Below are positions 786-45,150 of a stretch of DNA of 64,000 nt, piece by piece. Both the position numbers and the translations under genes were made by a program. Location: NCBI GenBank assembly GCA_964599625.1, contig CAZRGC010000001.1, forward strand, positions 244,959-308,958. Direction: 5' to 3'. The stretch comes from an uncultured Gammaproteobacteria bacterium. Lineage in GTDB: Bacteria; Patescibacteriota; Microgenomatia; UBA8517. Numbering within the stretch: the first letter of the stretch is position 1; each line of letters begins with the position of its first letter. Under the pieces are notes generated by a model. The model was not told where the DNA came from. It did no database searches and worked only from the letters and a program-made list of their open reading frames with translations.

Positions 786-1346
786 TTAGATCGAAGAATA
801 TACGGGAAGTTTTACGAATCTGGCATTCTTTATTGGCCAGTATGCAACCCAGGCTTTGCCGCTAATATCCTTTTTGGTAATCGGACCCCAAGCTCTAGAA
901 TCTGAGGAGTGCGGTCTATTGTCTCCCATTGTAAAATACTTTCCTTCGGGAACTGTATAGGTTGTGCCCTCCGGGAGGAAAAATCCATCATTTGTAAACA
1001 AATCGCTTGCAAGATAGGGTTCATCCAGAAGATTTCCATTAATATACACATGACCTTCTTTTATCATTACTGTTTCCCCGGGAAGTGCAATCACCCTTTT
1101 AATGTATTCGTCGGTTTCCGAAACGGGTGGTGTAAACACAACTACGTCGCCTCTTATTGGATCTCTTCTATAGTATGTGACCTTTTCCGTAAGAATATAT
1201 TCCGCGTCAGGGAAATTGGGATGCATTGATTGGCCCTTGATTTTGTGAGGCCTCATGATAAGCAGGTACACAAAAAAGAATATACCTACTGCGAAGACGA
1301 CTACTTCCAAAATATCAAGAAAAAAAGCGCCGAGTTTTCCAAACAT
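786..1346 (-). CDS. lepB: Signal peptidase I (S26 family)
   Basis: N-terminal TM helix, catalytic Ser box GQSMHPNF, KRVIALPGE, and the GDNRPHSSDSR box typical of SPase I. Confidence 0.85.
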   Translation of the reverse strand: MFGKLGAFFLDILEVVVFAVGIFFFVYLLIMRPHKIKGQSMHPNFPDAEYILTEKVTYYRRDPIRGDVVVFTPPVSETDEYIKRVIALPGETVMIKEGHVYINGNLLDEPYLASDLFTNDGFFLPEGTTYTVPEGKYFTMGDNRPHSSDSRAWGPITKKDISGKAWVAYWPIKNARFVKLPVYSSI

Positions 1347-1543: not shown

Positions 1544-4500
1544 GTGATCTCCCCATTCAAATATTTTAAAACTACCCATTCGCGCCTTTTTGCTTTATTT
1601 CTGGTGTTTGTTTTTCTTGTTGCCGGACTTTACACAAAGTTTTTTCAAAATAAACTTCAGACCGAGGCCGGGTACCAATCTCCACAAATCTTTGTTTATG
1701 GCGGTGAAAACAGTTTTAGTGCAGGTGGCCTTATATCCTTGGCATCTACCGACGAGGCTGCGGTCCAGGTGGGAGGTTATAACATTTCGGGAAGCGCAGT
1801 TATCGATGTATACAAAGCCAACAAAGACCTACTTTTGGATTATTTGATTCACGACAAAGAAGGCAAGCAAGTAAAATCCAAGCCTGATGTTTCCAAGTTG
1901 GAGTTTGTTGGAACCACAACTCATAACATAAATACGGGTTCGTATGAAGGATCAAAAGTTCCTCTGCCTTTGTCGGAAACTGGTATTTGGTATCTCAAAG
2001 TCAAAATTGGAAATGTAAATACTGACGCCTTTGTGCTTAGGACGGGATTTGGTGTCTTAGCTAAAGAAGGTGACAATGAGTTTGTTTTTTGGGGTCAGGA
2101 CTTTAAAACCAAAAGAAGTATCGGATCTGGAACGATTAGTGTTTTGAATCTTAAAGATTCGGTATCCAGCCTTTATCAGACAGATTTTGATAATAGTGGG
2201 TTGGCCCGAGGTAATATTTCGGAAAATGCCGACATTGCTTTGGCGCAATTTGGCGAACAACTGGCAGTTGTTCCTTTGAATCTTAAATACTTAAACGTCG
2301 CTTCATACAAATCATATGTAGAAAAAGCCAGGAATACAAACTACTTTGTATTTACTGACAGGCCTTTATATAGTCCTGGTGATAAAGTGTTTTTCAAAGC
2401 TGTTATCAGAAACGACGACGACGCGCGTTACACGATTCCCTCCGGAAGTGCCAAAGTAAAAATATCTTCGGGCTGGGGGGAAGAAGAGTTTGTTTTAGAG
2501 AAAAACTACCCCATATCCCCCGACGGAACAGTATCCGGTGAGTACAGCATACCCGCGGATGCAAAACTGGGTTGGTACAACATGCAAATTAGTACAGGTG
2601 AATCGACGACTGTTAATTGGGGCGAGTCACATTGGTACAACGGCAGTGTTAGCTTTGATGTCCAGTTTTATCAAAAACCAGAGTATTCTGTTGACGTTAC
2701 TACACCAAAAACAGAGCTTGTCGCGGGAGATATGGCTGCGTTCACAATAGAGGGTAATTATTTTTCCGGACAACCCATGAGTGGCCAAAAGGTCAAATAC
2801 AGAGTGGCAGCCTCTGATTATTACGACTACAACTACTTTAGCGATGCTTCTTCCTTGCGATCTGCAATTTCGTCTGAATATAGATATGGTTACTACGGAT
2901 CTCATACAGTTTTGGAAGGGACAACGGTGTTAGACAAAAACGGCAGAAAAGATATCGAATTTGAAACGAAGATGGACTTTAATAGCGGCAAAAGTCAGGT
3001 TTTCACTATAGAAACAACTCTTGAGGACAACTCTCAAACACCGTCTTTTGCCAGAAGAAACGTTTTGGTTTACGCAGGTCGATACGGGATTTACAGGACC
3101 GATTACTCATACGGAAGTAAAGTAAACACAAAGCTCGATCTTCCTGTGCGTCTTTATGCCTATGATCAGGATGCAAGTTTGGGGAATGTGCAACTGGTTG
3201 GGAAAGTGCACTGGGAAACTTGGGAAAAGTACACTGATCCAAATCAGAAATATCCTCAGTACAGAAAAGTTGAGTCAGATCTGTCTGATATTAAAGCCAC
3301 AACCGATTCGTCTGGCAAAGCGATTTTAAGTTTCGTCCCTGAAAAATTGGGTTATTACAGAATTACTGTTCAGGGCAAAGATTCCAGAGACAATCTTATT
3401 GCTAACACATTCTATTCATACGTCACCGATCAAGATCAGCCCGCCTTTACCCAAGGCGGTGGAGAAGAAATAACTGTCAGTGCTGACAAGCAGGTGTATA
3501 ACCCGGGTGAAACTGCAAAACTAGCAATTTATTCAAAAACACCAGATAGAGATGTGTTTCTTTCGATGGAACGCGGTAGGGTAAACAGGTTTCAGGTTTT
3601 GCATCTAAATGACAATAAATCAACTATAGACATGCCTGTTTTGGATACCGACATCCCAAATATCTTTGCCAAGGTGTCATCTTTTGCGGCTTCGGCACTT
3701 GATTCCAATTCCATAAACATTAAAGTCTCAACTCTCAGCAAAAAAGTAATAGTAGATCTGAACTTTGATAATAAAAAATACGCGCCGGGTGATGATGTAA
3801 ACGTAAAAGTAACAACAAAAGACGGCCTTGGTCAGCCTGTTTCTGCAGACGTTGCACTCTGGGCTGTAGACAAGGCCATATTCGAACTTTCAGACAATAC
3901 ACTGGGGGATATATTCGAAAACTTTTGGAATGAAAGAGGAAACACAACTCAGGAAGATCACTCGCTGGAAGGAATTGTTGCCTATAGCGCAGAAGGTGGA
4001 GGATGCTTCTTGCCCGGTACAAAGGTGCTTATGGCTGACGGAAGTCAAAAAAATATTGAGGATGTCAAAAAGGGTGATTTGGTGCTTACCCGTTCGTCCG
4101 AAGCAAACGACAAATTGGTAAAAGCAAAAGTTTTGTCTACCACAAAAGCCCGTGAGTCAGGTTATTTAACAATAAACGGCACCCTCAAAGTGACTCCTAA
4201 TCATATAATTTGGGCCAATGGTGTCTGGAGAGAGGCGGGAAGTATTGAACTGGGAGACACTCTCAGAAATTCCCAAAATCAGAATGTTTTGGTTTACTCC
4301 AAAGAATGGCAAAGATACACCACGGATGTATACAATTTGAGCGTAGAAAAATACCACACTTATTTTGCAGATGGAGTCTTTGTTCACAACCAAAAAGGTG
4401 ACGCCAGAAGTACGTTTAAAGACACTGCGTACTGGAATCCCAGTATCAAAACAAACGCAAGCGGTGTCGCAAACGTCACTTTCAAACTTCCGGATAATTT

Positions 4501-6667
4501 GACAACATGGACAGTTGCTGCTGTTGCCAACACAACCGACACCAAAGTGGGTCAGACAACCAGCGAAATTGTGGTTACCAAAGACGTGATAGTGAGACCG
4601 ATATTGCCCAATATAATGAGGCTTGGTGACAACATAGTTATATCTGCATTGATACAAAATTCTACAGATGCTGATAAAAACTTTGACATAGACCTGAAGT
4701 TTGACTCGGGTGAGGTGCTTTCAAGATCGTTCAAAAATGTTCAAGTTGGTTCGGGTAGCGTTGAACGTTTTGCTTGGGAGATAAAACCCTCCAAGGAGTC
4801 AGAGGGTTCCAGTCTGGAGATTTCCGCCAAAGCCACAGATAATTCAGAAGCTCAGGACACAATTATTTCCAAAGTTGCAGTGATCCCTTTTGGATTTTTT
4901 GAGAATTTTGCAGAAACTGGCGAGGGCAATAAAAATTTTAAGGTCAGTCTATCTTCAAATATATCCAAAACAAAATCAGATATCAGATTGTCGCTTTCAC
5001 CTTCGATATTGGGAACTTTGCCAACAGCAATGAAATATTTGGTGAATTATCCGTATGGTTGTACAGAACAGATAACCAGTCGGTTTGTACCCGCAATTAT
5101 TGCCAAAGCAAATCAACAGCTATTTTCTGAAGCGCTCCAAGACAAAGATGTGAATGAAATGATTGAGACCGGTGTTGCCAAATTGCTTAATTCTCAGATG
5201 GGTAATGGCGGGTGGACCTGGTGGTTTACGGGCAACGCAGATCCGTTTATCACTTCATACGTTGCTGAATATTTGTCATATGCAAACAAACTTGGATATA
5301 AAGTTGATAAAAATGCGATGAATAGGGTTAAGGGGTATTTGGCAAGCAAGACCTATTATGACTACAAACAGCAGAAAGAAGTTAGTTTTACTGACGCCGA
5401 GTTAACTGCCAAAAATTACGGGCTCGTGATGTTGGGAGAAACGAAAAATTTGTCCAAAGTAAATTTGGATAACCTTCAACCGGACATGTTGGCATTGGCT
5501 GTTATTGTAAACTCAATGTCCGGCAACAAAAATTCCGCAACAAACGGTCTGGATAAACTTATTTCAATGGCTCAAGTTCAGGGCGACACTGTTTATTGGA
5601 ACGAAGGTGACAAAGTTAATTTTGGATCAAAAGACGCCTCGACTGCTTTTGCGATAAGGGCAATAATTGCCTCCGGCGGAGACCGTGAATTAGCTGTAAA
5701 GGCGGCCAGATATTTAGTAAGAAACAGAAAGTCTGATTATTGGTCTAACACTTTTGCAACGGCACAGGTTGTGCGCGCGCTCACAGATCTCTCTAAAACA
5801 GCAGGCGAAGCAAACCCAAGTTTCCTTTACACGGTTACAATGGACGGAAAAGAGTTGGCAAATGGGCAAGTTAAAAATGTCAAAGATACAATTGAAGACA
5901 TTGTGATTGATCCGAACAAAATAAACCAAAAAGGTTCGGATATCAAAATTGTAATGGAAGGCGAGGGTCAGCTTTATTCCACATTGGTTTCCAAATTGTT
6001 TGTCACAGATACAAAAGCAGAACCTGTCAAAAACGAACTTTCAATCAAACGCGAATATATTAACGAGAAGGGCGAAGAGTATGCATTGGCCGTTGGGGAC
6101 AGTGTTGTTGTCAAGCTAACAGTAACAGGTCCGCAGGCGCCAGAGCGTTACGGTGCAATTACAGATGAGCTGCCGTCTGGAATGGTCCCTGTTAACCCTG
6201 GTTTCAAAAACGAACAATACGGGGAAAGCCCGCTGCCAAAGTACTTCTCCTCCTCTTATGTCACTGGAATGGATGTGACCCAAAATGGCGCAGTGCTCTC
6301 TTTGTACACAATAGAGCCTGGTGTAAGTACCTACACATATCGCGCTAGAGTTGTGAGTGCAGGAAAATTCACAGTTCCTCCTGCAACAGTTTCGCTAATG
6401 TACGCACCGGAAATATATGCCAGAACTGGCGTGCAGGTGGTGACAATTGCCAGTGAATCCAAACTGATACCTGCAGCAGCATTGGGAGTTTTTCTTAAAA
6501 AATATGTGGTAAGCATTGTAATTGCAGTGCTGGGAATGATTGGTGTTATATCCCTGGTCATAAAAGCCAAAAAGACAGGGTTTAGTCTAGCCAATCTAAA
6601 AACCAGACTCGCAAAGATCTTCAATAAAAAAAACGACCACCCGCCCATAACCCCTGACGTTCAATGA
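1544..6667 (+). CDS. Bacterial alpha-2-macroglobulin-like protein (1707 aa) with N- and C-terminal TM anchors and an inserted Hint domain
   Basis: Size and domain order match bacterial A2M (YfhM/ECAM-like). The thioester motif YPYGCTEQ is at nt 5057-5071. The post-bait A2M signature TFKDTAYWNPS...LPDNLTTWTVAAVA is present. N-terminal (LFALFLVFVFLVAGL) and C-terminal (VVSIVIAVLGMIGVISLVI) hydrophobic helices flank the protein. GTG start at 1544 follows a GAGGA about 16 nt upstream. Confidence 0.8.
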   Translation: MISPFKYFKTTHSRLFALFLVFVFLVAGLYTKFFQNKLQTEAGYQSPQIFVYGGENSFSAGGLISLASTDEAAVQVGGYNISGSAVIDVYKANKDLLLDYLIHDKEGKQVKSKPDVSKLEFVGTTTHNINTGSYEGSKVPLPLSETGIWYLKVKIGNVNTDAFVLRTGFGVLAKEGDNEFVFWGQDFKTKRSIGSGTISVLNLKDSVSSLYQTDFDNSGLARGNISENADIALAQFGEQLAVVPLNLKYLNVASYKSYVEKARNTNYFVFTDRPLYSPGDKVFFKAVIRNDDDARYTIPSGSAKVKISSGWGEEEFVLEKNYPISPDGTVSGEYSIPADAKLGWYNMQISTGESTTVNWGESHWYNGSVSFDVQFYQKPEYSVDVTTPKTELVAGDMAAFTIEGNYFSGQPMSGQKVKYRVAASDYYDYNYFSDASSLRSAISSEYRYGYYGSHTVLEGTTVLDKNGRKDIEFETKMDFNSGKSQVFTIETTLEDNSQTPSFARRNVLVYAGRYGIYRTDYSYGSKVNTKLDLPVRLYAYDQDASLGNVQLVGKVHWETWEKYTDPNQKYPQYRKVESDLSDIKATTDSSGKAILSFVPEKLGYYRITVQGKDSRDNLIANTFYSYVTDQDQPAFTQGGGEEITVSADKQVYNPGETAKLAIYSKTPDRDVFLSMERGRVNRFQVLHLNDNKSTIDMPVLDTDIPNIFAKVSSFAASALDSNSINIKVSTLSKKVIVDLNFDNKKYAPGDDVNVKVTTKDGLGQPVSADVALWAVDKAIFELSDNTLGDIFENFWNERGNTTQEDHSLEGIVAYSAEGGGCFLPGTKVLMADGSQKNIEDVKKGDLVLTRSSEANDKLVKAKVLSTTKARESGYLTINGTLKVTPNHIIWANGVWREAGSIELGDTLRNSQNQNVLVYSKEWQRYTTDVYNLSVEKYHTYFADGVFVHNQKGDARSTFKDTAYWNPSIKTNASGVANVTFKLPDNLTTWTVAAVANTTDTKVGQTTSEIVVTKDVIVRPILPNIMRLGDNIVISALIQNSTDADKNFDIDLKFDSGEVLSRSFKNVQVGSGSVERFAWEIKPSKESEGSSLEISAKATDNSEAQDTIISKVAVIPFGFFENFAETGEGNKNFKVSLSSNISKTKSDIRLSLSPSILGTLPTAMKYLVNYPYGCTEQITSRFVPAIIAKANQQLFSEALQDKDVNEMIETGVAKLLNSQMGNGGWTWWFTGNADPFITSYVAEYLSYANKLGYKVDKNAMNRVKGYLASKTYYDYKQQKEVSFTDAELTAKNYGLVMLGETKNLSKVNLDNLQPDMLALAVIVNSMSGNKNSATNGLDKLISMAQVQGDTVYWNEGDKVNFGSKDASTAFAIRAIIASGGDRELAVKAARYLVRNRKSDYWSNTFATAQVVRALTDLSKTAGEANPSFLYTVTMDGKELANGQVKNVKDTIEDIVIDPNKINQKGSDIKIVMEGEGQLYSTLVSKLFVTDTKAEPVKNELSIKREYINEKGEEYALAVGDSVVVKLTVTGPQAPERYGAITDELPSGMVPVNPGFKNEQYGESPLPKYFSSSYVTGMDVTQNGAVLSLYTIEPGVSTYTYRARVVSAGKFTVPPATVSLMYAPEIYARTGVQVVTIASESKLIPAAALGVFLKKYVVSIVIAVLGMIGVISLVIKAKKTGFSLANLKTRLAKIFNKKNDHPPITPDVQ
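4004..4390 (+). other. Hint (intein/BIL-like) domain embedded in the A2M ORF, 129 aa, Cys1 ... His-Asn, followed by Gln
   Basis: Intein blocks are readable in the translation: A = CFLPGTKVLMADGS, B = TPNHIIW, F = VYNLSVEKYHTYFADG, G = VFVHN. The next residue is Q (caa at 4391-4393), not C/S/T. No endonuclease domain, so it is mini-intein sized. Confidence 0.7.
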
Positions 6668-7572
6668 GAAAAGTGCAATCACTTTTCTCCACCTCCAGTG
6701 TGAAAAAGGTGGCGGCCTTTGTTATTTTTTTAATCATCATTTTTTGCGTTCCGTATTTTTTGGTTCAGGACAAAAAAGCGTTTACTCAGGAAAAAAAGTA
6801 TAACCAAATAATATATTTTGATCAGGAGGAATTTACGAAAGGTATTTCCAAAGCAGACAAACCCATAGAACCAAAAGACTATGCAATAAGGGGTGGTGTT
6901 GTTCCCCATCATCTTTTGGCGGGATATATAATTGCTGATTTTTTTCAGAAGTTGGCATATCAAAAACCCGGCACAATAATTTTGGTTGGGCCAAACCATT
7001 TGGAAGCAGGTGAATATAAAGTTTTATCCGGCACAAACTCTTGGAATACACAGTATGGCGTTATTGATGTCAACAAAAAAATTGTGGGAGATTTGGTGGA
7101 GAAAAATCTTGTGCAAATTAATGATAAAGTGTTGGAAGAAGACCAGTCGGTGTCCGCCCCCATGACCTTCATCGCATTTTTTATGCCATATGTAAAAGTT
7201 GTACCTTTGCTTCTGAGTTCACGGATGACAAATGATGATTTGATTAGTCTTTCAGACTCCCTCGGCGATTTGTTAAAAGATGAGAAAACTGTATTGGTGT
7301 CGTCGGTAGACTTTTCTCACTATCTAAGCTTTGACGAGGCTCAGGCGCGCGACTTGGAATCTATTACTTCAATCAAAAAATTCGGGTGCCAGAAACTACT
7401 TACTTATGATAGCCAACACATGGATTCTCCTGCTTCGATATGTACTCTTTTATATTCAATGTTAAATATAGGAGCCACAAATATAGAAGTGGACACACAC
7501 GACAATTCTGCAAACATCCAAAAGTCACAAAAAGATAACACCACAAGTTATTTTTCTATATATTTCCACTAA
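6664..7572 (+). CDS. Memo-like / AmmeMemoRadiSam system protein B family protein with N-terminal TM anchor
   Basis: Motifs GVVPHHLLAGY, LVGPNH and SVDFSHY resemble the MEMO1/extradiol-dioxygenase-like family signatures. N-terminal hydrophobic helix present. Confidence 0.5.
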   Translation: MRKVQSLFSTSSVKKVAAFVIFLIIIFCVPYFLVQDKKAFTQEKKYNQIIYFDQEEFTKGISKADKPIEPKDYAIRGGVVPHHLLAGYIIADFFQKLAYQKPGTIILVGPNHLEAGEYKVLSGTNSWNTQYGVIDVNKKIVGDLVEKNLVQINDKVLEEDQSVSAPMTFIAFFMPYVKVVPLLLSSRMTNDDLISLSDSLGDLLKDEKTVLVSSVDFSHYLSFDEAQARDLESITSIKKFGCQKLLTYDSQHMDSPASICTLLYSMLNIGATNIEVDTHDNSANIQKSQKDNTTSYFSIYFH

Positions 7573-7587
7573 TGTTAAAATAATTAG

Positions 7588-8280
7588 ATGAAGAACAAGT
7601 TTTTAGGTTTATCAATTGTTGCAGCTTGGACAATTTCAATCGGAATAGGTGTGTATTCCATATTTTCTGCAACTCCATTGAATGTCATAAAGTCACCAAC
7701 AATACTAACCAACCTTCTTCAGAGAGTTACGGGAATAGTGGCGTTTATTCTACTTTTTTATCAGATATTGTTTGGGGCTTTTATGCCGTATCTTGCAGAA
7801 AAAACTGGAGGCATTATCTACAAGATCCATATTTATCAAGGCGTTTTGATATACACATTGATCTTGGCTCATCCTGTTTTCTTCCTTCTGTTTAATCATT
7901 TTGCCGGCAGGGGAGTGGATCCTTATTACGTTTTTAGTCAGGTTTGTTTCATATGCCAAAGCAAAGGGGAGGCTTACTACACATTTGGAAGAATTTCTTT
8001 CTGGTTAATAAACATAACTGTTTTTGCGGGTCTTTTTAGAACAATCAATCATTTTATGAGGGTTAATTGGAAGAAGTTCCATTTGTTGAATTACCCGGTT
8101 TTTGTTTTGGTGGGTATTCATGGTTACTTTGTGGGAAGTGATTTTTCTACTCAGCCATTTTTTGGCATGGCAATTTTGTTTTCTTTAGTATTTATGTTTG
8201 TACTTATCAAGAAAGCTCCGGAGTTATTTGCAGATTTTATGAAGTGGTTAAAAAGAGTTGATCGGGTACCGGTCACTTAA
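7588..8280 (+). CDS. Multi-TM protein with ferric-reductase-like (FRD/MsrQ-like) bis-heme His pairs
   Basis: About six TM helices. Two His-x13/x12-His pairs sit in predicted helices (HIYQGVLIYTLILAH and FHLLNYPVFVLVGIH), as in FRD / cytochrome b-type domains. Confidence 0.5.
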   Translation: MKNKFLGLSIVAAWTISIGIGVYSIFSATPLNVIKSPTILTNLLQRVTGIVAFILLFYQILFGAFMPYLAEKTGGIIYKIHIYQGVLIYTLILAHPVFFLLFNHFAGRGVDPYYVFSQVCFICQSKGEAYYTFGRISFWLINITVFAGLFRTINHFMRVNWKKFHLLNYPVFVLVGIHGYFVGSDFSTQPFFGMAILFSLVFMFVLIKKAPELFADFMKWLKRVDRVPVT

Positions 8281-10312: not shown

Positions 10313-12568
10313 TTACCTTCTGTAGTCGTCTTTCAAGCAGTCTTCCACTGGGGTCTTGCTTTGGAATTCAATCGTTTTGGACTTAGTTCCAAAACCTGAC
10401 AAATTGTACTCTTTGTATAATGTTCTGCCGTTTGATAAGAACTGGGCCACAATTACACTGGTTTTTGATTTGTCTGCAATTAGCCTGAACTTATATTTCC
10501 CGTCTTTTGGGTTAGTTATGGAGATCATTCCCTGTTCACTTTGGTAGGTTTTGCCGTATTTGTCGGTTATCCAAAAATTTCCAGATGATGCAACCACAAC
10601 AAGGGCGGATTTTGGATCGTGATATGGGGGATCAGGGATGCTGGGTGATCCTAAAAACTCAAGAATCGAAGAAATACCTTCGGTTGAAGCAACCAACCCT
10701 GAATGTGATTGGTTTATAACTTTATTGTCTGCATTGTCGATTTGAGCACTACTAACAAGAACCGCACCGTCTCCAGATGTTGTGTTAATTTCACCGACGG
10801 GTTTACCGTCTAGCCACAACCCCTTCTTAACATCAGATTTGGATGGATTAGTTACTCTAATTTTCTCTAAAGTTGGGAATCCTGATCCGGATAGAGTTCC
10901 AACCTTTACGTCCCAAAAAGGATAGCTAAAACTGGTTGGTAAGTAATTATTTTGGGCAATCATGGTATTTACCGGCTTTAGCGACCCATTTTTTTGAATA
11001 TAGTCAGTTGTCGGCAAAAGGTTTTGAATTGATTCAGGCACTCCACAGTGTTTCAAAAACAAAGTTTTGGAAATCCTATCAACTAAATCATTACCCCAAA
11101 CTTCGTGTCCGGAATAAAGTGGATAAGAAATCGCAGAACCTTTGTTTGGCGCACCTGCCATCAAAAGCTTTTTTGCCTTTCCACCTAATTCATTTTCAAC
11201 ATAAGCCCTGCCCAAAAGTCCGCCCATGCTGTGGCCAACTATGTTTACTTTTTCTGCGTTGGGCGCAACTGAATCAATGAATGTCGCCAGTTTTGGTTCA
11301 TTGTTTAATATCTTATCCCTCCAGTCAAAATAGAAAGGTATGGTGTTCCACCCAGCATTTTCTAGTGAAGTTGTAAGATCTGCATACACATCCTTTGCGT
11401 AAGGTGCCAATGTCCAGTTGCCAACATAACCTTCTTTTTTGCAGGAAATAAACGCGTCAAGATTCCAACTGGCACCAGTTCCGGGAATTAATACAACCTT
11501 ACTTGAAGTTACCGGTACAGGAGACGGACTTGGTGTTGGGGTTGGTGAGGGTGGTGTGTCAGGGGTATAACTCATTTTCCAAACATGGTTTGTGTAGTCA
11601 CCATTTGCAACACCGCCAATAAGATAAAGATTGTTTCCAGATGCAATAAGCTGCCCACAGCAGTTTGTCTCGGGTAATTGTGGTCCGTTTTGCCAAACAC
11701 CAATCGTTCCATCTGTGTTGATTTCTGAGTAATAAACATTTTGAGTTCCATCACCTGCGATCACTAATGTGTTTGCAACCCTTGCCAGTCCAAACCTCCA
11801 CATTCCCACAGGAAGATTTGTTAGGTTTTCCCATGTACCAATTGAACCATCAGGGTTTATTGGTGCTCTAATAACTTGGTTTGAATATCCAGAAGGTGTA
11901 AAACCACCAAAAACAACAAGATGGTTATTGATAACTATCATAGAATGACCTTCTGTTTTTTCTGGCAAATTTCCTGCTGTTCTCCATGCACCAATTGTTC
12001 CGTCTGGGTTAATGTCAGAGACGTAAACTGATGTGCTGGCAAGGTTTGGGTTGTTCGCCTGACTGGATAAGGTGTTTCCGCCAGAAAAGAAAATCATATT
12101 GTCTGATACAACACTGGCACCTAAAGAAAGTGTTTGTGGTAATGGTGTTAAGTTTGTCCAAGATGAAATGTTACTATTTTCAAGTAGACCTAGCCACACC
12201 TCACCTGTATTGTTGAAGGAAGTGTCTGCGCCACCGAGAAGATATACATAGTTGCCACTTGTTGCTCCACTCAACCAATATCTGTTTGGTGGTTGTGTAG
12301 CGTTTGTGTTCCAGGCGGACAATGTTCCCGAGACTGTGACTGTTGTATTGAATCCAGTGTTGGGAACAGTGTTGTTTGCACCCCCTAGGTTAAACAAGCT
12401 ATTATCATTTGAAAATGCAAAGTTACTTGCAATCTGTAGCGGCAGATTTTCTTCCTGGATCCAATTTGATAATCCACCAGTCGCAAAAACAAGTCCTGAA
12501 CCTAGTACAAAACAGACCAAAATTACTATCACCAGAGACAACGATCTAGTAAGATAATTTTTGCTCAC
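10313..12568 (-). CDS. Secreted Kelch-repeat beta-propeller protein fused via a Pro/Thr linker to an alpha/beta-hydrolase (lipase-like, GHSMGG) domain; GTG start
   Basis: Signal/TM at N-terminus. Repeated Kelch-like blades (YLLGGAD, MIFFSGGNT, HLVVFGGF, LYLIGGVANG). Linker TPDTPPSPTPTPSPSPVPV. C-terminal domain carries the nucleophile-elbow motif VNIVGHSMGGLLGRAY (GxSxG). Confidence 0.7.
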   Translation of the reverse strand: MSKNYLTRSLSLVIVILVCFVLGSGLVFATGGLSNWIQEENLPLQIASNFAFSNDNSLFNLGGANNTVPNTGFNTTVTVSGTLSAWNTNATQPPNRYWLSGATSGNYVYLLGGADTSFNNTGEVWLGLLENSNISSWTNLTPLPQTLSLGASVVSDNMIFFSGGNTLSSQANNPNLASTSVYVSDINPDGTIGAWRTAGNLPEKTEGHSMIVINNHLVVFGGFTPSGYSNQVIRAPINPDGSIGTWENLTNLPVGMWRFGLARVANTLVIAGDGTQNVYYSEINTDGTIGVWQNGPQLPETNCCGQLIASGNNLYLIGGVANGDYTNHVWKMSYTPDTPPSPTPTPSPSPVPVTSSKVVLIPGTGASWNLDAFISCKKEGYVGNWTLAPYAKDVYADLTTSLENAGWNTIPFYFDWRDKILNNEPKLATFIDSVAPNAEKVNIVGHSMGGLLGRAYVENELGGKAKKLLMAGAPNKGSAISYPLYSGHEVWGNDLVDRISKTLFLKHCGVPESIQNLLPTTDYIQKNGSLKPVNTMIAQNNYLPTSFSYPFWDVKVGTLSGSGFPTLEKIRVTNPSKSDVKKGLWLDGKPVGEINTTSGDGAVLVSSAQIDNADNKVINQSHSGLVASTEGISSILEFLGSPSIPDPPYHDPKSALVVVASSGNFWITDKYGKTYQSEQGMISITNPKDGKYKFRLIADKSKTSVIVAQFLSNGRTLYKEYNLSGFGTKSKTIEFQSKTPVEDCLKDDYRR

Positions 12569-41037: not shown

Positions 41038-44000
41038 ATGGATGTTTTGGAAAAACCCTTGTTTATGAAGCGCGAAAGGGTGGTGATAGACTCCAAAGTC
41101 GAAGTTAAGTATCCCGAAAAAACCTGGTCTGTGGAGCAGTCGTATAGGGATATATATCAAAATCATTTAGACGCACAAGTGAAACGAAGTGTGGACGGAC
41201 TGTTGGCCGATGTTTCTGGTGCGGTTGACGGTGACACGGAAGCTGTGCTGCAAAACGACAGTCTAAGAAAAGTTGCCTACGAATATCTTGCCACAAAAGG
41301 CCACACACCAAGAGAGATGCGTGAGCAAATGGTTGATTTTCTTACCCAAAACATCACGGGTAAAACCAAGAGGGAACAATCTGAACTTGCAGAAATAGTT
41401 GAAAACCACAACATTCTTCTTCCTAAAGTCGAAGTCCTGGCAAGGGATGACCATGGAAACGAAAGCTGGATTGATAAAGATACTTTGGAATTGGACCCGC
41501 TTAGGGATTTGCGGATTATCGGGTTTAGGATAAGCGATGACGGCGAAGGATACGACGCAAACCTTAAAACAATTTTTTACTCATCCGGCAAGGATTCCCT
41601 TGACCAGGTGGGTAAATTCGGTGAAGGCGGAAAAATGAGCGAAATTCTTTTGCAGCAAAAAGGTTTCACAATAGAATCACGGTCTGCATATTCATATGAT
41701 GACAAAGAAGGGCATCATGACATGCTTTGGAAAGGGCGCCCCAGAGTGTCCAAAGAAGGCTCAATGGAACTTCATGTCACCCAGGTGGAACTATCGGCCC
41801 CGATTCCCAAAGGATCAGTTACGGAGGTTGTCTTTCGCGGTCCAGACATCGAAGATCAAGACGTAAAACAAATCACGGAATGTGTTAAATCTTTGGGGCA
41901 ACCTCAAATAATTTATGACAAACATAGGCGCGCGGGAGATTGGTTTTATTATTCCTCGTATGACCCTGCTAAGCCACTTGTTGGTGTGAGCAGGGATTAT
42001 GATGCCCTAATGGTTCAGGGAATTAGAGTAGTGCCCGTAAACACCGAAAGCAATTTACTTTTTGGTTATAGCACCTTTGACAAGAATGCTCTTAATGCAC
42101 GCGACAGGAATAAATACACCCCTGAATTTTTGGAATCGGTGAAAGACTTCTGGCTGCATGCGCCGCGGCACACTATTAAGTTGTATTTTGACGCAATGGA
42201 ACCAAAAAATGGTAAAAAGGTTTTTAATTCATTTGAGCAGGGAGTTTTTAAACACCTGCTGACAATGTACCCACCCGAGGATGGAGGAAGCCCTACACAT
42301 GCGGAACTTCAAAAATTCCGCAAGAGTGTTCTTGCAGAAGTTTTGGAAAGAACAAAAGGCAGTCATTTCAAAAGATTGTACTTTGCAACCGGAGATGAAA
42401 GACATGATTTTGGATTTTATCTGGATTCTAATGTTATTGTTGTAGATCCGCGCAGATGGGGTTTGGATTTTGAAGAAGATTTTTTGGCGGAGGAGCTGGG
42501 TAATCGGTTTGTATCCCGGGATGAACTCAGGAAAAATTTAAGAAGACACAAGGGGTGGGAAAATTCAGTTGAGTTGAGTGACGAAGAAAAGCTAAATGCA
42601 GAAGTCTGGTTTGACAATATAAAGGAGTTTGTCTTTTCGCAGATCGAAGGTAAAGATGATGAACTTTTTGGCGGCAGATTTGTTTTTGCCAAGTTTGTTA
42701 ACGGGGGAGACTTGGTTAGAGTTGAAAAAGAAGGCGGAGACGAACTGACAGATGACTACTACCATAACAACTCAGAAATGCTGGTAATAAATTGGGAATT
42801 GGCTAAAACTTTTCATGACCCGGAAGCATTGAAAAGATTGGTTGCAGTTTACATTATGGCCCAGGACGGATATCTGAATTCAAGCTTCCACTTTGGGGGA
42901 CCTCAGGAGACTGCCAACAAGTTTATTCAAAAAAGGTGGGAGGGTGTTGTTGATTACAAAAAAGCCGAAATAAATCATAGAGTAGACCCGGAAGAGTTTA
43001 TGCGGATGTTTGAGGCTTTGTGGTCCAGAGAAACTGATGAATCGGTTTTTGCGTTTAATACTTTCAGAAATCTGTCGGAGAGGGTTGTTGATACAGGTGA
43101 TATAGATGACGGACTTTTTCTCCTAAATGAACACAAGGATGTTGATCCAAGAATTATTGCAGTACTCACACAAAATGTATTTAGAACAAAAGATGGTTTT
43201 GCCCGGTATGTGGCGGAAGAAGGCTCGTACAAAGTCGAGCTTTTTGGGTTTGATGATATGCAGCTAATATCGGAAAAAGGCGGAAACAAAACTTACTACT
43301 ACAAAGATCATGTATTTATGGAACTTCCCGAATTTGATTATGTTAAGTATAAAAAAGATATTGTCTACAGACACGACAAAACACTTTACAGGTCGTCACC
43401 CGAAAATGTAATTGAATGGGAGGTTGAATCCAAAAAATATCTTAAATTTGGCGAAGGTTTTTGCTACGCAAGAGTTGGGCATATTAGTTTTGCACAGGAG
43501 CAAATTGACGATATTGTCGGAAATTTGAAAGTTGTTGACAGAAATAGCCAAACTTTAAAACAAACGGAACTTCTGGACGGGCATATTGACACTTCGGTTC
43601 CCCTTAAATACGGCAAAGGCAATTGGGATAAACCTGTAAGATTTTTTGAGGATGTTGTTCAAAATCATTTGAACGCGGGTAAGGTTGAAATCAGATTTCT
43701 ATTAGAGAGAAATGGCGAAAATGTTTGGGTTGAGGCGGCAGAGCTTTCTGATAGAGACTTGATTTTGGGCATAAAGTTTGAGGATGATGGACGGGGTTAT
43801 GCACCGGAAAGCCTGGAGAGGATGGGCAGGTCCGAAAAAGACAGTCCCTTGGACGAAGGTAAATATGGTGAGGGAACCAAAATGTTAATGGCTGCGGCAT
43901 GCAGAAATCAGATTGGTCTGGTTTTTGACTCTTATTGCGTCCGAAACGGAGAAAAAATAAGTTGGCAGGCAACAGCCGAAACGGGCACACGGCAGATTGT

Positions 44001-45150
44001 CGAAAAAGGCGGGGTGACAGATGTAAATATGGCAGGATTTGATTTGCAGTCAACTGGTGCAAACAAAAATACTTCTGCGACAACAATATATTTTAAAGAC
44101 TTAGAGTCCGATTTTTATAAAAAATGCATGGAAGTTGTGGATCCCAGGGCTGAAAACGGCGGGCTATCTAGATATGTAAGGACACTTGCCGGTGGAGTTG
44201 GAGTTTTGCATTCGGTAGGGCCTGTAAAAGTTTTGGCAGACGAAAAAGGCGATGTCTACGAAAACGGAATACTAATGAGTACAGAGTCAACTGCTTTGGG
44301 CAGTTTGGATGTTCCGGACATTTCGGCAAACAGGGAACGCGACACAATAAAACCGGAAAGATTGAAACAATATGTTGATTTTCTGATGTCACACACCGGT
44401 GATCCTGTTTTGGTTGAAAAGGTTCTAGAAAGGATTGTGAAAGGTGGTATTTATGATTACCAGGACATAAGTGATATTTTTAACAACATAGAAGGCACCC
44501 CGCTGAATATCGGTGTTTGGAAAGAAGTTGCGCACGAAAAGTTTGGTAATGTGATTATTTTCAATGGAATAATTGTTCCGGAGTCTAAAAGATATTTAGA
44601 GTACCACGGATACGACACAATAATTTACGCATCTGGCTCAAAGGGAAAGGAAAGGTTGGCAAAGGCATGTTTTCCGAGTGTCAAAGAGCTGATAAAAAGG
44701 AGTAAACTTGAACCTGTCATAATACCCGAACCAACAAGACAAAAAGTTGAGGCTGTTGTTGACACGCTTGCAGATAAAGTTTTGGAAATAATTGACCAAG
44801 GGGGATTGGCGGAGGCAACAAACAGACAGTTTGTGGCACTTCTTAGAGATAAAAATAGGCTGCATGAAACTATTGAATACTCCAAATTGGACCCGTTCAT
44901 TTTGGGTGAAGCCAAAGGCGAAATGAAGACTGTGATAAGCGAATACCTGCTTCACAATACACACGACTTAAACATGGTTCTTTTGCATGAGTGGGCACAT
45001 CATTTGAGCGGGGGAAGCGATCTGGAGCCAAAGTTTGTTGCAACACTTCTGGCGATAGGTTTGGGTATTAAACCAGTACCCGTAAATACGGCAAACCCGT
45101 CACCTGCAAAGAATTACAGACGTAGTAGAAGAAGGAAATCTAACAACTGA
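41038..45150 (+). CDS. Giant hypothetical protein (1370 aa) with two degenerate GHKL-ATPase-like modules and a C-terminal HExxH motif
   Basis: Module 1 has N-box-like DIYQNHLDAQ, then ISDDGEGYD and GKFGEGGKMSE. Module 2 has VVQNHLNAGK, then FEDDGRGYA and GKYGEGTKMLM. These match the order N-box, DxGxG, GxxGxG of Bergerat-fold ATPases. C-terminal LLHEWAHHLSGGSD. Confidence 0.6.
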   Translation: MDVLEKPLFMKRERVVIDSKVEVKYPEKTWSVEQSYRDIYQNHLDAQVKRSVDGLLADVSGAVDGDTEAVLQNDSLRKVAYEYLATKGHTPREMREQMVDFLTQNITGKTKREQSELAEIVENHNILLPKVEVLARDDHGNESWIDKDTLELDPLRDLRIIGFRISDDGEGYDANLKTIFYSSGKDSLDQVGKFGEGGKMSEILLQQKGFTIESRSAYSYDDKEGHHDMLWKGRPRVSKEGSMELHVTQVELSAPIPKGSVTEVVFRGPDIEDQDVKQITECVKSLGQPQIIYDKHRRAGDWFYYSSYDPAKPLVGVSRDYDALMVQGIRVVPVNTESNLLFGYSTFDKNALNARDRNKYTPEFLESVKDFWLHAPRHTIKLYFDAMEPKNGKKVFNSFEQGVFKHLLTMYPPEDGGSPTHAELQKFRKSVLAEVLERTKGSHFKRLYFATGDERHDFGFYLDSNVIVVDPRRWGLDFEEDFLAEELGNRFVSRDELRKNLRRHKGWENSVELSDEEKLNAEVWFDNIKEFVFSQIEGKDDELFGGRFVFAKFVNGGDLVRVEKEGGDELTDDYYHNNSEMLVINWELAKTFHDPEALKRLVAVYIMAQDGYLNSSFHFGGPQETANKFIQKRWEGVVDYKKAEINHRVDPEEFMRMFEALWSRETDESVFAFNTFRNLSERVVDTGDIDDGLFLLNEHKDVDPRIIAVLTQNVFRTKDGFARYVAEEGSYKVELFGFDDMQLISEKGGNKTYYYKDHVFMELPEFDYVKYKKDIVYRHDKTLYRSSPENVIEWEVESKKYLKFGEGFCYARVGHISFAQEQIDDIVGNLKVVDRNSQTLKQTELLDGHIDTSVPLKYGKGNWDKPVRFFEDVVQNHLNAGKVEIRFLLERNGENVWVEAAELSDRDLILGIKFEDDGRGYAPESLERMGRSEKDSPLDEGKYGEGTKMLMAAACRNQIGLVFDSYCVRNGEKISWQATAETGTRQIVEKGGVTDVNMAGFDLQSTGANKNTSATTIYFKDLESDFYKKCMEVVDPRAENGGLSRYVRTLAGGVGVLHSVGPVKVLADEKGDVYENGILMSTESTALGSLDVPDISANRERDTIKPERLKQYVDFLMSHTGDPVLVEKVLERIVKGGIYDYQDISDIFNNIEGTPLNIGVWKEVAHEKFGNVIIFNGIIVPESKRYLEYHGYDTIIYASGSKGKERLAKACFPSVKELIKRSKLEPVIIPEPTRQKVEAVVDTLADKVLEIIDQGGLAEATNRQFVALLRDKNRLHETIEYSKLDPFILGEAKGEMKTVISEYLLHNTHDLNMVLLHEWAHHLSGGSDLEPKFVATLLAIGLGIKPVPVNTANPSPAKNYRRSRRRKSNN

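Follow-up and report, generated by a model that had tools for sequence, protein, structure and literature searches.

The window analyzed here is a stretch of 64,000 nucleotides from the genome of an uncultured bacterium that GTDB places in the Patescibacteriota (contig CAZRGC010000001.1, positions 244,959 to 308,958). It contains an open reading frame (ORF; 1544..6667, + strand) whose inferred product of 1707 residues is an alpha-2-macroglobulin (A2M) of the thioester-bearing ECAM/YfhM type, as judged by Pfam, hhalign and Foldseek. At the position of the protease bait this A2M carries a Hint domain of 129 residues (residues 821–949, 4004..4390, + strand), of the bacterial intein-like (BIL) or PT-HINT type and without an endonuclease insert, as recognized by Pfam, by sequence search of the Protein Data Bank (PDB) and by Foldseek comparison of an AlphaFold2 (AF2) model. 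We rejected an artifact of assembly or of a frameshift as the explanation for this arrangement, since an NCBI genome and a Logan assembly made independently both contain the identical A2M protein, which also has hundreds of homologs.

The host protein is organized as an A2M. Pfam assigns an MG2 macroglobulin (MG) domain (residues 267–352), the A2M bait-region domain (A2M_BRD, PF07703, E = 8.9e-17; residues 643–782, 3470..3889, + strand), the A2M domain that follows the bait and holds the motifs DTAYWNP and LPDNLTTW (PF00207, E = 1.3e-19; residues 961–1050, 4424..4693, + strand), the thioester domain (TED; residues 1159–1284) and the bacterial MG10 or C-terminal MG domain (PF17973, E = 3.8e-21; residues 1499–1623, 6038..6412, + strand), which has a conserved ..LMYAPE.. 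motif with invariant M and Y. The TED includes the classical A2M thioester motif, G-C1173-T-E-Q1176 (residues 1172–1176, 5057..5071, + strand), in which C, E and Q do not vary across an alignment of 121 sequences. The protein aligned with Escherichia coli YfhM over about 1350 columns (1351) with an hhalign probability of 99.9 (E = 2e-33). When an AF2 model of residues 441–1640 (1200 residues; mean predicted local distance difference test [pLDDT] 81.7) was compared with known structures by Foldseek, the best matches were native Salmonella A2M (4u48) and native ECAM (5a42), at E of about 1e-47, with structures of C5 and C3 also among the fold matches.

Both ends of the protein are hydrophobic. 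Residues 15–33 (1586..1642, + strand; mean of 2.26 in a Kyte–Doolittle window of 19 residues) form a putative signal peptide or signal anchor, and a predicted transmembrane helix at residues about 1655–1673 (6506..6562, + strand; hydrophobic window mean 2.98) is followed by a basic tail. A transmembrane-like N-terminus is found in 206 of 231 full-length relatives and a transmembrane-like C-terminus in 216 of them, and about 90% of the members of the A2M–Hint family have hydrophobic helices at both termini. The start codon is uncertain: the ORF opens with GTG at 1544, and gene callers choose a start 20 codons downstream, a choice that would cut into the hydrophobic segment at the N-terminus. 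A gene for tRNA-Val(CAC) (1424–1498, + strand) ends 46 nucleotides upstream of the GTG. The start of the next gene (6664..7572, + strand), which encodes a Memo-like protein with an N-terminal transmembrane anchor (PF01875, E = 4e-27), overlaps the A2M stop codon. An antisense ORF of 163 amino acids (4166–4657, − strand) overlaps the region that encodes the Hint and is most probably spurious, given the hundreds of homologs that conserve the sense frame. The A2M has just two cysteines, Cys821, which is the first residue (Cys1) of the Hint domain, and Cys1173 of the CxEQ motif, and two is also the median for the family.

Residues 821–949 are, by their sequence, a complete Hint domain of the type A BIL or PT-HINT class with all catalytic blocks. 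In describing its conservation we refer to two sets, 259 distinct full-length Hint domains from Patescibacteria A2Ms, used for the junctions, and the alignment of 121 sequences mentioned above. Cys821 (codon tgc, 4004..4006, + strand), the predicted nucleophile of an N–S acyl shift, is invariant in all 259. Block B, of the form TxxH, is T884-P-N-H887 (residues 884–887, 4193..4204, + strand), and block F is VYNLSVEKYHTYFADG (residues 929–944, 4328..4375, + strand); T884 and H887 of the former and V929 and N931 of the latter are each invariant (121 of 121). Block G ends in His948-Asn949 (4385..4390, + strand; likewise 121 of 121), the predicted site of Asn cyclization, and the DNA at 4385–4393 reads cac aac caa, that is, His948-Asn949-Gln950. 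The loops at residues 851–870 and 908–920 are the most variable parts of the domain. The GC content over the Hint coding region (0.41–0.43) equals that of its flanks.

The Pfam PT-HINT profile (PF07591) matches residues 829–949 over profile positions 3–136 of 137 with 47.8 bits (cutoff 27.7; E = 2.2e-12), and the NCBIfam model intein_Cterm (TIGR01443) reaches 28 bits, above its cutoff of 15.6. The closest sequences in the PDB were the PT-HINT of the Streptomyces umbrella toxin UmbC (8w20, 1e-15) and a Clostridium thermocellum BIL (2lwy, 1e-10), a RecA mini-intein scoring only 1e-5. Searched against plasmids by tblastn, the domain matched only proteins annotated as "polymorphic toxin-type HINT," at 26–40% identity. 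An AF2 model of residues 806–964 has a pLDDT above 90 across the Hint domain, with disordered tails, and adopts the beta-rich horseshoe with adjacent N- and C-termini that characterizes the HINT superfamily. Its top Foldseek matches were BIL2 (6y75/6tmm; E = 1.5e-11, TM score 0.77–0.82) and 2lwy (TM score 0.85, root-mean-square deviation 1.8 Å, 31% identity), with inteins at about 1e-8 and Hedgehog proteins at about 1e-6 (1at0, E = 2e-6) ranking lower; the best 50 PDB matches were all BILs, inteins, Vint or Hedgehog Hog domains. The profile match, Cys1, TxxH and His-Asn, together with a +1 residue that is not a nucleophile, are the sequence features of type A BILs and PT-HINTs. Two neighboring classes were considered and rejected. 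A toxin-releasing PT-HINT does not fit, as A2M domains follow the Hint and Pfam finds no toxin domain, and neither does a Hedgehog Hog domain, as the Hint ends in His-Asn with A2M sequence directly after it and the Hedgehog-type Hint profile (PF01079) scores below threshold (24.8 bits; cutoff 29.7).

As judged by alignment and by structural model, the Hint domain is inserted in the bait loop of the A2M. Two findings place it there: a profile alignment by hhalign pairs the Gly820/Cys821 junction with Gly940/Arg941 of ECAM, and linkers of low pLDDT lie on both sides of the domain. The N-side linker (residues 799–820, 3938..4003, + strand; pLDDT below 50 over residues 799–819) ends in a conserved ...HSLEGI..AEGGG, with Gly820 at −1. 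The C-side linker, QKGDARSTFKDT (residues 950–961, 4391..4426, + strand; pLDDT below 50 over residues 953–961), begins with Gln950 (+1), Lys951 (+2) and Gly952 (+3) and includes Arg955, which is conserved across all A2M relatives. In order, the model has short helices at 777–782 and 790–797, the linker 799–819, the Hint domain, the linker 953–961 and the next MG strand; in the small Hint model, DSSP assigns H-N-Q-K to the last strand of the domain. The C-junction was set by MAFFT alignment with Hint-less relatives, hhalign having put ECAM residues inside the C-side of the Hint. In ECAM itself, residues R923–L942 of the bait turn become disordered upon cleavage by elastase, and the bait, once cleaved, docks onto the C-terminal MG domain with R956, G958 and N963 (PMC4498604). 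The window A2M departs from the ECAM/YfhM type in lacking a long, variable, protease-sensitive bait region: outside the Hint, its bait loop is only about 15 residues, rich in Gly, with conserved flanks and essentially no insertions or deletions.

A sequence-only reading of this DNA had proposed a complete Hint domain at 4004–4390, more like a BIL than a canonical intein, at the bait position of an A2M. The motifs it quoted are all present (GGG/CF, the slash marking the junction, TPNH, the block F sequence given above, VHN/Q, GCTEQ, TFKDTAYWNPS and LPDNLTTWTV), the above-cutoff PT-HINT match and the BIL and PT-HINT proteins that head the PDB sequence and Foldseek searches bear out the class, and the ECAM alignment and flanking linkers agree with the location. 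Only the distance it gave to the thioester, about 270 residues, needs correction: Cys1173 lies 224 residues past the end of the Hint and 352 past its start.

How widespread is this architecture? We searched 1.84 billion cluster representatives exhaustively with residues 640–1300 as the query and took the best 150 representatives. The sequence-only reading had suggested checking homologs for presence or absence of the insert, and the outcome was mixed: among the 149 further proteins in the matches listed, 128 have the Hint and 21 have none. Separately, all 120 homologs listed at 45–100% identity, assigned to Gottesman-, Davies-, Woese-, Woyke- and Blackburnbacteria, carry a precomputed PF07591 match (120 of 120). 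A scan of GTDB species genomes revealed Hint-containing A2Ms in Daviesbacteria, WWE3, Microgenomates, Moranbacteria, Roizmanbacteria and unnamed Patescibacteria, and A2Ms without a Hint in Chloroflexota, Peribacteria, Acidobacteriota and Armatimonadota. Taxon labels here are the titles of metagenome-assembled genomes, and some are clearly wrong. Six loci (L008, L014, L017 and L021–L023) bear the GTDB titles Gammaproteobacteria, Nevskiaceae or Bathyarchaeia despite having A2M–Hint genes of the Patescibacteria type; their bins are probably mislabeled or contaminated.

The junctions are strongly constrained. Among the 259 domains Gly is found at −1 in every one and at −2 in 250, and not one lacks the terminal His-Asn; no insertions or deletions occur in residues 783–960 of the 121-sequence alignment. 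With the catalytic residues invariant in 259 distinct copies, nothing about the domain is degenerate, and the alternative also raised in the sequence-only reading, a degenerate intein by which the protein would be split for good, does not hold. Its statement that the +1 residue is not a nucleophile holds for Gln950 and for the family at large: +1 is Gln in 135 domains, Asp in 62, Glu in 36, Gly in 15, Asn, Lys and Ser in 3 each, and Leu and Ala in 1 each, so that Cys, Ser or Thr accounts for only 3 of 259 (all Ser) and Gln, Asp, Glu or Gly for 248. Gly is at +3 in 241. The most distinctive residue is Lys at +2, present in 254 of the 259; the remaining five have it at +1 or +5, so that every Hint-containing protein (259 of 259) has a Lys within +1 to +5. 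By comparison, Hint-less orthologs have Gly at the position of Lys+2, the loops of outgroup proteins are likewise without Lys, and six PT-HINTs from polymorphic toxins have neither Gly−1 nor x-K-G after His-Asn. Thus, Lys+2 is, on alignment evidence, tied to the Hint. We rejected the notion that it is a general A2M feature that docks on MG10, given the Gly at that position in Hint-less orthologs and outgroups. On the N-side, the Gly-Gly/Cys-Phe junction matches that of Tetrahymena BIL2, which appears in the alignment as GG(A)F owing to a C1A change in the crystallized variant.

Two subgroups deserve mention. In a Woesebacteria-like subclade (P0243–P0251; L016 2534–7645, L019 2564–7219), which resembles the thioester-less bacterial A2Ms (type II), the CxEQ motif has been lost and the catalytic Hint (GGG/CF...HN/DKG) kept. 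A deep-branching Hint-containing subgroup (L017, L020, L021, L023 and P0260) has proteins of 2100–2285 residues with a long N-terminal extension, the junction KGGSGGG/CF, and Y, W, E or D in place of Gly ahead of the thioester motif.

The history of the domain was reconstructed by comparing Hint with host. Over 26,106 pairs, the pairwise identities of Hint and host are correlated (r = 0.78), with a residual standard deviation of 0.047 against a binomial expectation of 0.044 for 129 sites, and among those pairs none had an unexpectedly similar Hint. This co-divergence without excess scatter indicates, as far as pairwise identities can, that the Hint was gained once, in the ancestor of the A2M clade of the Patescibacteria (or candidate phyla radiation, CPR), and then descended vertically. 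A recent horizontal insertion was rejected, given the flank-like GC content and the co-divergence with the host. Poly-Gly at the bait is also seen in Hint-less A2Ms from Chloroflexota and Peribacteria (GGGGG-GGGGGGG ahead of R..F.DxAYW; L026, L028, L030, L032, L064, L081 and L082), and thus the Hint appears to have entered a Gly-rich loop that was already there. Acidobacteriota A2Ms have ...YQLADFKNE... in place of poly-Gly. It is a matter of speculation whether a pentaglycine-like bait is a substrate mimic for Gly-Gly endopeptidases.

Since its gain, the Hint appears to have been cleanly lost at least about 12 times, an approximate count, each time with an equally long poly-Gly loop left behind. 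The flanks of the Hint-less proteins are identical in pattern to those of Hint-containing ones (...SLxGI..AE(K/G)GGG-GG(D/E)xR.vFKDTAYWNP), and the median loop is 16 residues in the former and 15, once the Hint is subtracted, in the latter. For 15 of 17 Hint-less proteins the closest relative contains a Hint rather than lacking one, and Fitch parsimony required 13–17 changes over 60 bootstrapped neighbor-joining trees. A telling pair is P0264, which lacks the Hint, and P0208, which has it. They are sisters in 100% of neighbor-joining bootstraps and each is directly followed by a Memo-like gene, and are therefore orthologs; their loops read GAEMGG-GGDDGPR and TAESGG[Hint]GKDGGAR, respectively. 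Hint-less and Hint-containing representatives have terminal branches of equal length (p = 0.34), and the thioester motif is kept in all Hint-less relatives except P0238. Gly codons on both sides of the insert could account for the feasibility of clean loss. The Hint-less orthologs retain the operon, the loop length and the evolutionary rate of their relatives, which suggests that the processed Hint-containing protein ends up equivalent to one with a continuous bait loop. Two other accounts of the Hint-less proteins were rejected: they are not a separate paralogous clade, being polyphyletic and in the same A2M–Memo operon, and they are not decaying genes, their branches being as long as those of Hint-containing proteins.

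What might the domain do? In the HINT superfamily, Cys1 together with the Thr and His of block B brings about an N–S acyl shift that places a thioester on the −1 residue, and the C-terminal Asn, aided by the penultimate His, cyclizes and so severs the C-junction. The branched intermediate of splicing depends on a nucleophile at +1 and cannot form where there is none. Type A BILs then either hydrolyze, giving mostly cleavage products, or ligate through the freed alpha-amine (PMC4031507, PMC7664689). The invariance of Gly−1, Cys1, the block B Thr and His, N931 and His-Asn in 121–259 sequences argues that activity of the domain is under selection, and we regard it as very probable that the Hint is chemically active. 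The explanation we prefer overall, giving it about an even chance of being right, is that an active BIL excises itself after export and that the bait is re-joined by attack of an amine. From the identity, position, conservation and phylogenetic pattern of the domain we infer the following steps and their outcome. The A2M would be exported and would fold; Cys821 would attack the carbonyl of Gly820, creating a glycyl thioester outside the cytoplasm; Asn949 would cyclize and thereby cut the C-side junction; and an amine would then attack the glycyl thioester, re-joining the two halves of the bait loop and releasing the 14-kDa Hint. The acceptor amine would be either the side chain of Lys951, giving an isopeptide of the kind reported for BIL2, or the alpha-amine freed on residue 950, a route that has been proposed for type A BILs. 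Once mature, the A2M would be an ordinary protease trap, on a par with its Hint-less orthologs.

There is precedent for both acceptors. Type A BILs can ligate their flanks without a side-chain nucleophile, by attack of the freed alpha-amine (PMC4031507), and the BIL2 variant of splicing is reported to join the C-terminal Gly of an upstream ubiquitin-like domain to the epsilon-amine of a Lys through an isopeptide (PMC8616854). Whether the flanks are re-joined or only cut we regard as evenly balanced. Re-joining is favored by three considerations: independent Hint-less orthologs, whose continuous loop is just as long, appear to be functionally interchangeable with Hint-containing ones; constitutive cutting would discharge the trap; and the Hint-specific invariants, Gly-Gly before, Lys-Gly after and almost any residue at +1, suit amine-mediated ligation. 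The assignment of Lys951 as the acceptor is tentative.

Several observations weigh against self-removal followed by re-joining. BIL domains are described in PMC7664689 and PMC4031507 as yielding predominantly N- and C-cleaved rather than spliced products, and by homology it is thus at least as likely that the bait is merely cut. At deep divergence the Hint is better conserved than its host, with 44% identity where the host has 27%. It is retained in about 86% of the representatives among the matches listed, in streamlined genomes from which it could be cleanly lost, and this retention hints at a benefit beyond harmless self-removal. The CxEQ-less subclade retains a catalytic Hint. Finally, the loss count is approximate, the trees having been built by neighbor joining on corrected p-distances with long branches.

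The strongest alternative, which we consider possible and clearly less probable than self-removal with re-joining, is that the Hint is a built-in trigger, cutting the bait without re-joining it, either constitutively or conditionally (in response to pH, redox state, metal, thiol or contact). Cyclization of Asn949 would free the segment QKG..R..FKDTAYW, which would displace the TED from the C-terminal MG domain and fire CxEQ, as in elastase-cleaved ECAM. The result would be a self-activating A2M that serves as a timer, as a conditional trap or as a C3-like self-opsonizing or adhesive protein. Such a trigger is in keeping with the propensity of BILs for cleavage and the high retention noted above, and with a Hint conserved as well as or better than its host. 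The insertion lies exactly where cleavage activates ECAM, and the conserved flanks, with no insertions or deletions in residues 783–960, are atypical of a broad-spectrum bait. The metal-modulated activity of BIL2 sets a precedent for conditional control, and by analogy with complement the Hint would occupy the place of the C3 anaphylatoxin domain. Yet Hint-less orthologs that have arisen repeatedly and that keep the operon, loop length, thioester and rate are hard to square with a radically different logic of activation; constitutive cutting would use up a short-lived thioester before a target came; simple cleavage offers no obvious reason for the invariant Lys+2; and the retention of the Hint in the CxEQ-less subclade implies a role independent of firing the TED thioester. 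Thus, for the self-tripping A2M that the sequence-only reading had raised, the evolutionary data lean the other way. In a broader form, held with similarly low expectation, the Hint would be a working part of the trap rather than a passenger, generating a thioester at the bait, perhaps conditionally. That GG/Cys thioester would either pass to Lys951 to give an isopeptide-bridged bait, a counterpart in bacteria and outside the cell of the "enzyme-free ubiquitination" of BUBL, or go unresolved, so that the bait is cut and CxEQ fired. It is then conceivable, no more probably, that the A2Ms of Patescibacteria are self-arming or self-tripping and carry their own "convertase."

The GG/Cys thioester could instead be handed to an external nucleophile, such as a protease Lys, a cell-wall amine or a lipid, giving the bait a second chemistry of covalent capture or anchoring like that of BIL2 or of cholesterol transfer by Hedgehog. 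We think this improbable. BIL2 has the identical GG/CF junction and Hedgehog a similar G/CF, Gly−1 is invariant, a glycyl thioester is on general chemical grounds the least hindered acyl donor, and BIL2 is reported to conjugate the flank on its N-side to Lys residues in a number of substrates. The near-invariant Lys in cis two residues past the Hint, however, points to an intramolecular acceptor, no region resembling a sterol-recognition or adaptor region follows the Hint, and Hint-less orthologs function without any such chemistry.

Marginally less probable again is a non-reactive module, a Hint that stays in place without processing itself in vivo and either plugs the loop as a folded domain or is itself the protease-sensitive bait. 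Its variable loops (851–870 and 908–920) could be accessible to proteases, and oxidation of Cys outside the cell could silence the chemistry, but the invariance of Cys1, Gly−1, TxxH and His-Asn in 259 copies would be unexpected for a passive plug, in a protein otherwise purged of Cys. An ordinary mobile class 1 intein, splicing through a +1 Cys, Ser or Thr and spreading by homing, is very improbable and was rejected: the insertion is clean, relatives with an empty site exist and models of intein N- and C-termini match weakly to moderately, but the +1 residue is Gln here and a nucleophile hardly anywhere in the family, there is no endonuclease domain in 129 residues, Hint and host co-diverge without excess scatter, and sequence and fold are nearer to BILs.

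Turning to the neighboring genes, a Memo-like gene lies directly downstream of the A2M gene in at least 13 Patescibacteria loci, with or without the Hint or the thioester; further examples are at 11066–11938 of L002, 6572–7477 of L086 and 7964–8854 of L088. None was found beside the Chloroflexota or Acidobacteriota A2Ms in the loci examined. The Memo-like gene seems to replace pbpC as the conserved partner of A2M. After it in the window comes a gene (7588–8280, + strand) for a polytopic membrane protein of 230 residues with His in predicted transmembrane segments and no Pfam match; it was otherwise seen only in the identical contig L001. A gene for a membrane protease lies just upstream of the A2M gene in two loci, for a signal peptidase of family S26 in the window (786–1346, − strand) and for a rhomboid in the Daviesbacteria locus L002 (5302–5958), which may be coincidence. 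Farther along the window, an ORF of 1370 amino acids (41038–45150, + strand) had no Pfam match at E ≤ 0.01.

To our knowledge, the natural function of BILs has been unclear since their description in 2003. The A2Ms described here offer hundreds of natural Hint-containing sequences and independent Hint-less orthologs in one well-understood host, for which the structural effect of cutting is known. Re-joining of the loop through Lys951 would make this the first bacterial protein splicing that forms an isopeptide, and a compact tool for ligation without a nucleophile. Should the Hint only cut, it would be the first activator to be found built into an alpha-macroglobulin or thioester protein, with a bearing on how the A2M and complement switch evolved. 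In either case two different thioester chemistries, that of the Hint Cys1 and that of CxEQ, are predicted to be placed in one A2M protein, and the architecture marks a conserved large surface protein, paired with a Memo-like one, in the little-understood cell surface of CPR episymbionts. In the literature we searched on macroglobulins, on BILs, Hints and inteins, on CPR and on PT-HINTs, we found nothing on a Hint in an A2M; papers on CPR mention surface proteins with A2M domains only as a putative defense against host proteases (PMC8080830). Databases tag A2M–Hint proteins automatically (with Pfam domains, and one UniRef name starts "Int..."), and hence the combination, a known domain class in a known host family, is visible there without having been interpreted. 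What is new is the site of insertion, the depth of conservation, the GG/C...HN/xK signature and the natural series of orthologs with and without the Hint.

It is instructive to compare the window A2M with better known systems. ECAM/YfhM and Salmonella A2M (5a42, 4ziq, 4rtd and 4u48) have the same order of MG domains, bait-region domain, TED with CxEQ and MG10, and ECAM/YfhM is likewise anchored at the cytoplasmic membrane and faces outward. ECAM/YfhM has a protease-sensitive bait loop of roughly 40 residues, a lipobox anchor and PBP1c (pbpC) as its partner, whereas the window A2M has a short, conserved, Gly-rich loop with a Hint, transmembrane helices and a Memo-like partner. In complement C3, C4 and C5, a folded anaphylatoxin (ANA) domain lies, by analogy, at the position topologically equivalent to the bait, and its removal from the N-terminal end of the downstream chain triggers a conformational change. 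The precursors of C3, C4 and C5 are cut at the ANA site into two chains that stay associated. There the cutting is done by external proteases (furin and convertases), whereas in the window A2M the Hint itself would cut.

Among the relatives of the Hint, the Hedgehog Hog domain shares the fold and a Gly/Cys-Phe N-junction. Hog domains use the thioester step alone and transfer the N-fragment to a nucleophile. The window Hint differs in having no sterol-recognition region and in keeping an intein-like His-Asn end. PT-HINTs of polymorphic toxins (Streptomyces UmbC, Rhs and CdiA) include the best sequence match and belong to the same Pfam family. They precede a C-terminal toxin, which they are thought to release, whereas the window Hint precedes about 750 residues of A2M, and their junctions have K, N, Y or A at −1 and SNC, CSI, DSL, TKC, DDC or SSG at +1 to +3.

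The best structural match, the BUBL BIL2 of Tetrahymena thermophila, shares the GG/CF junction. The epsilon-amine of a Lys resolves the BIL2 thioester (Chiarini 2021, as described in PMC8616854), and the Lys just after the window Hint is a circumstantial likeness. BIL2 is eukaryotic and intracellular, with ubiquitin-like flanks and an acceptor Lys in the downstream ubiquitin-like domain or in other proteins; the flanks of the window Hint are instead the halves of an A2M bait loop, as delimited by the Pfam bait-region and MG domains, and the isopeptide is a prediction. Finally, the type A BIL of C. thermocellum resembles the window Hint in its size of about 130 residues without an endonuclease, its Cys1, TxxH and VYN..V...HTY block F and its terminal His-Asn, and type A BILs in general share the lack of a +1 nucleophile and a secreted or surface host protein (Amitai 2003, Dassa 2004 and Aranko 2013, cited in PMC4031507). 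The window Hint is distinguished by its place in an A2M bait loop, with invariant Gly−1 and near-invariant Lys+2. Type A BILs are scattered among hypervariable proteins, whereas the Hint described here appears to be ancient and to have been inherited vertically throughout its clade.

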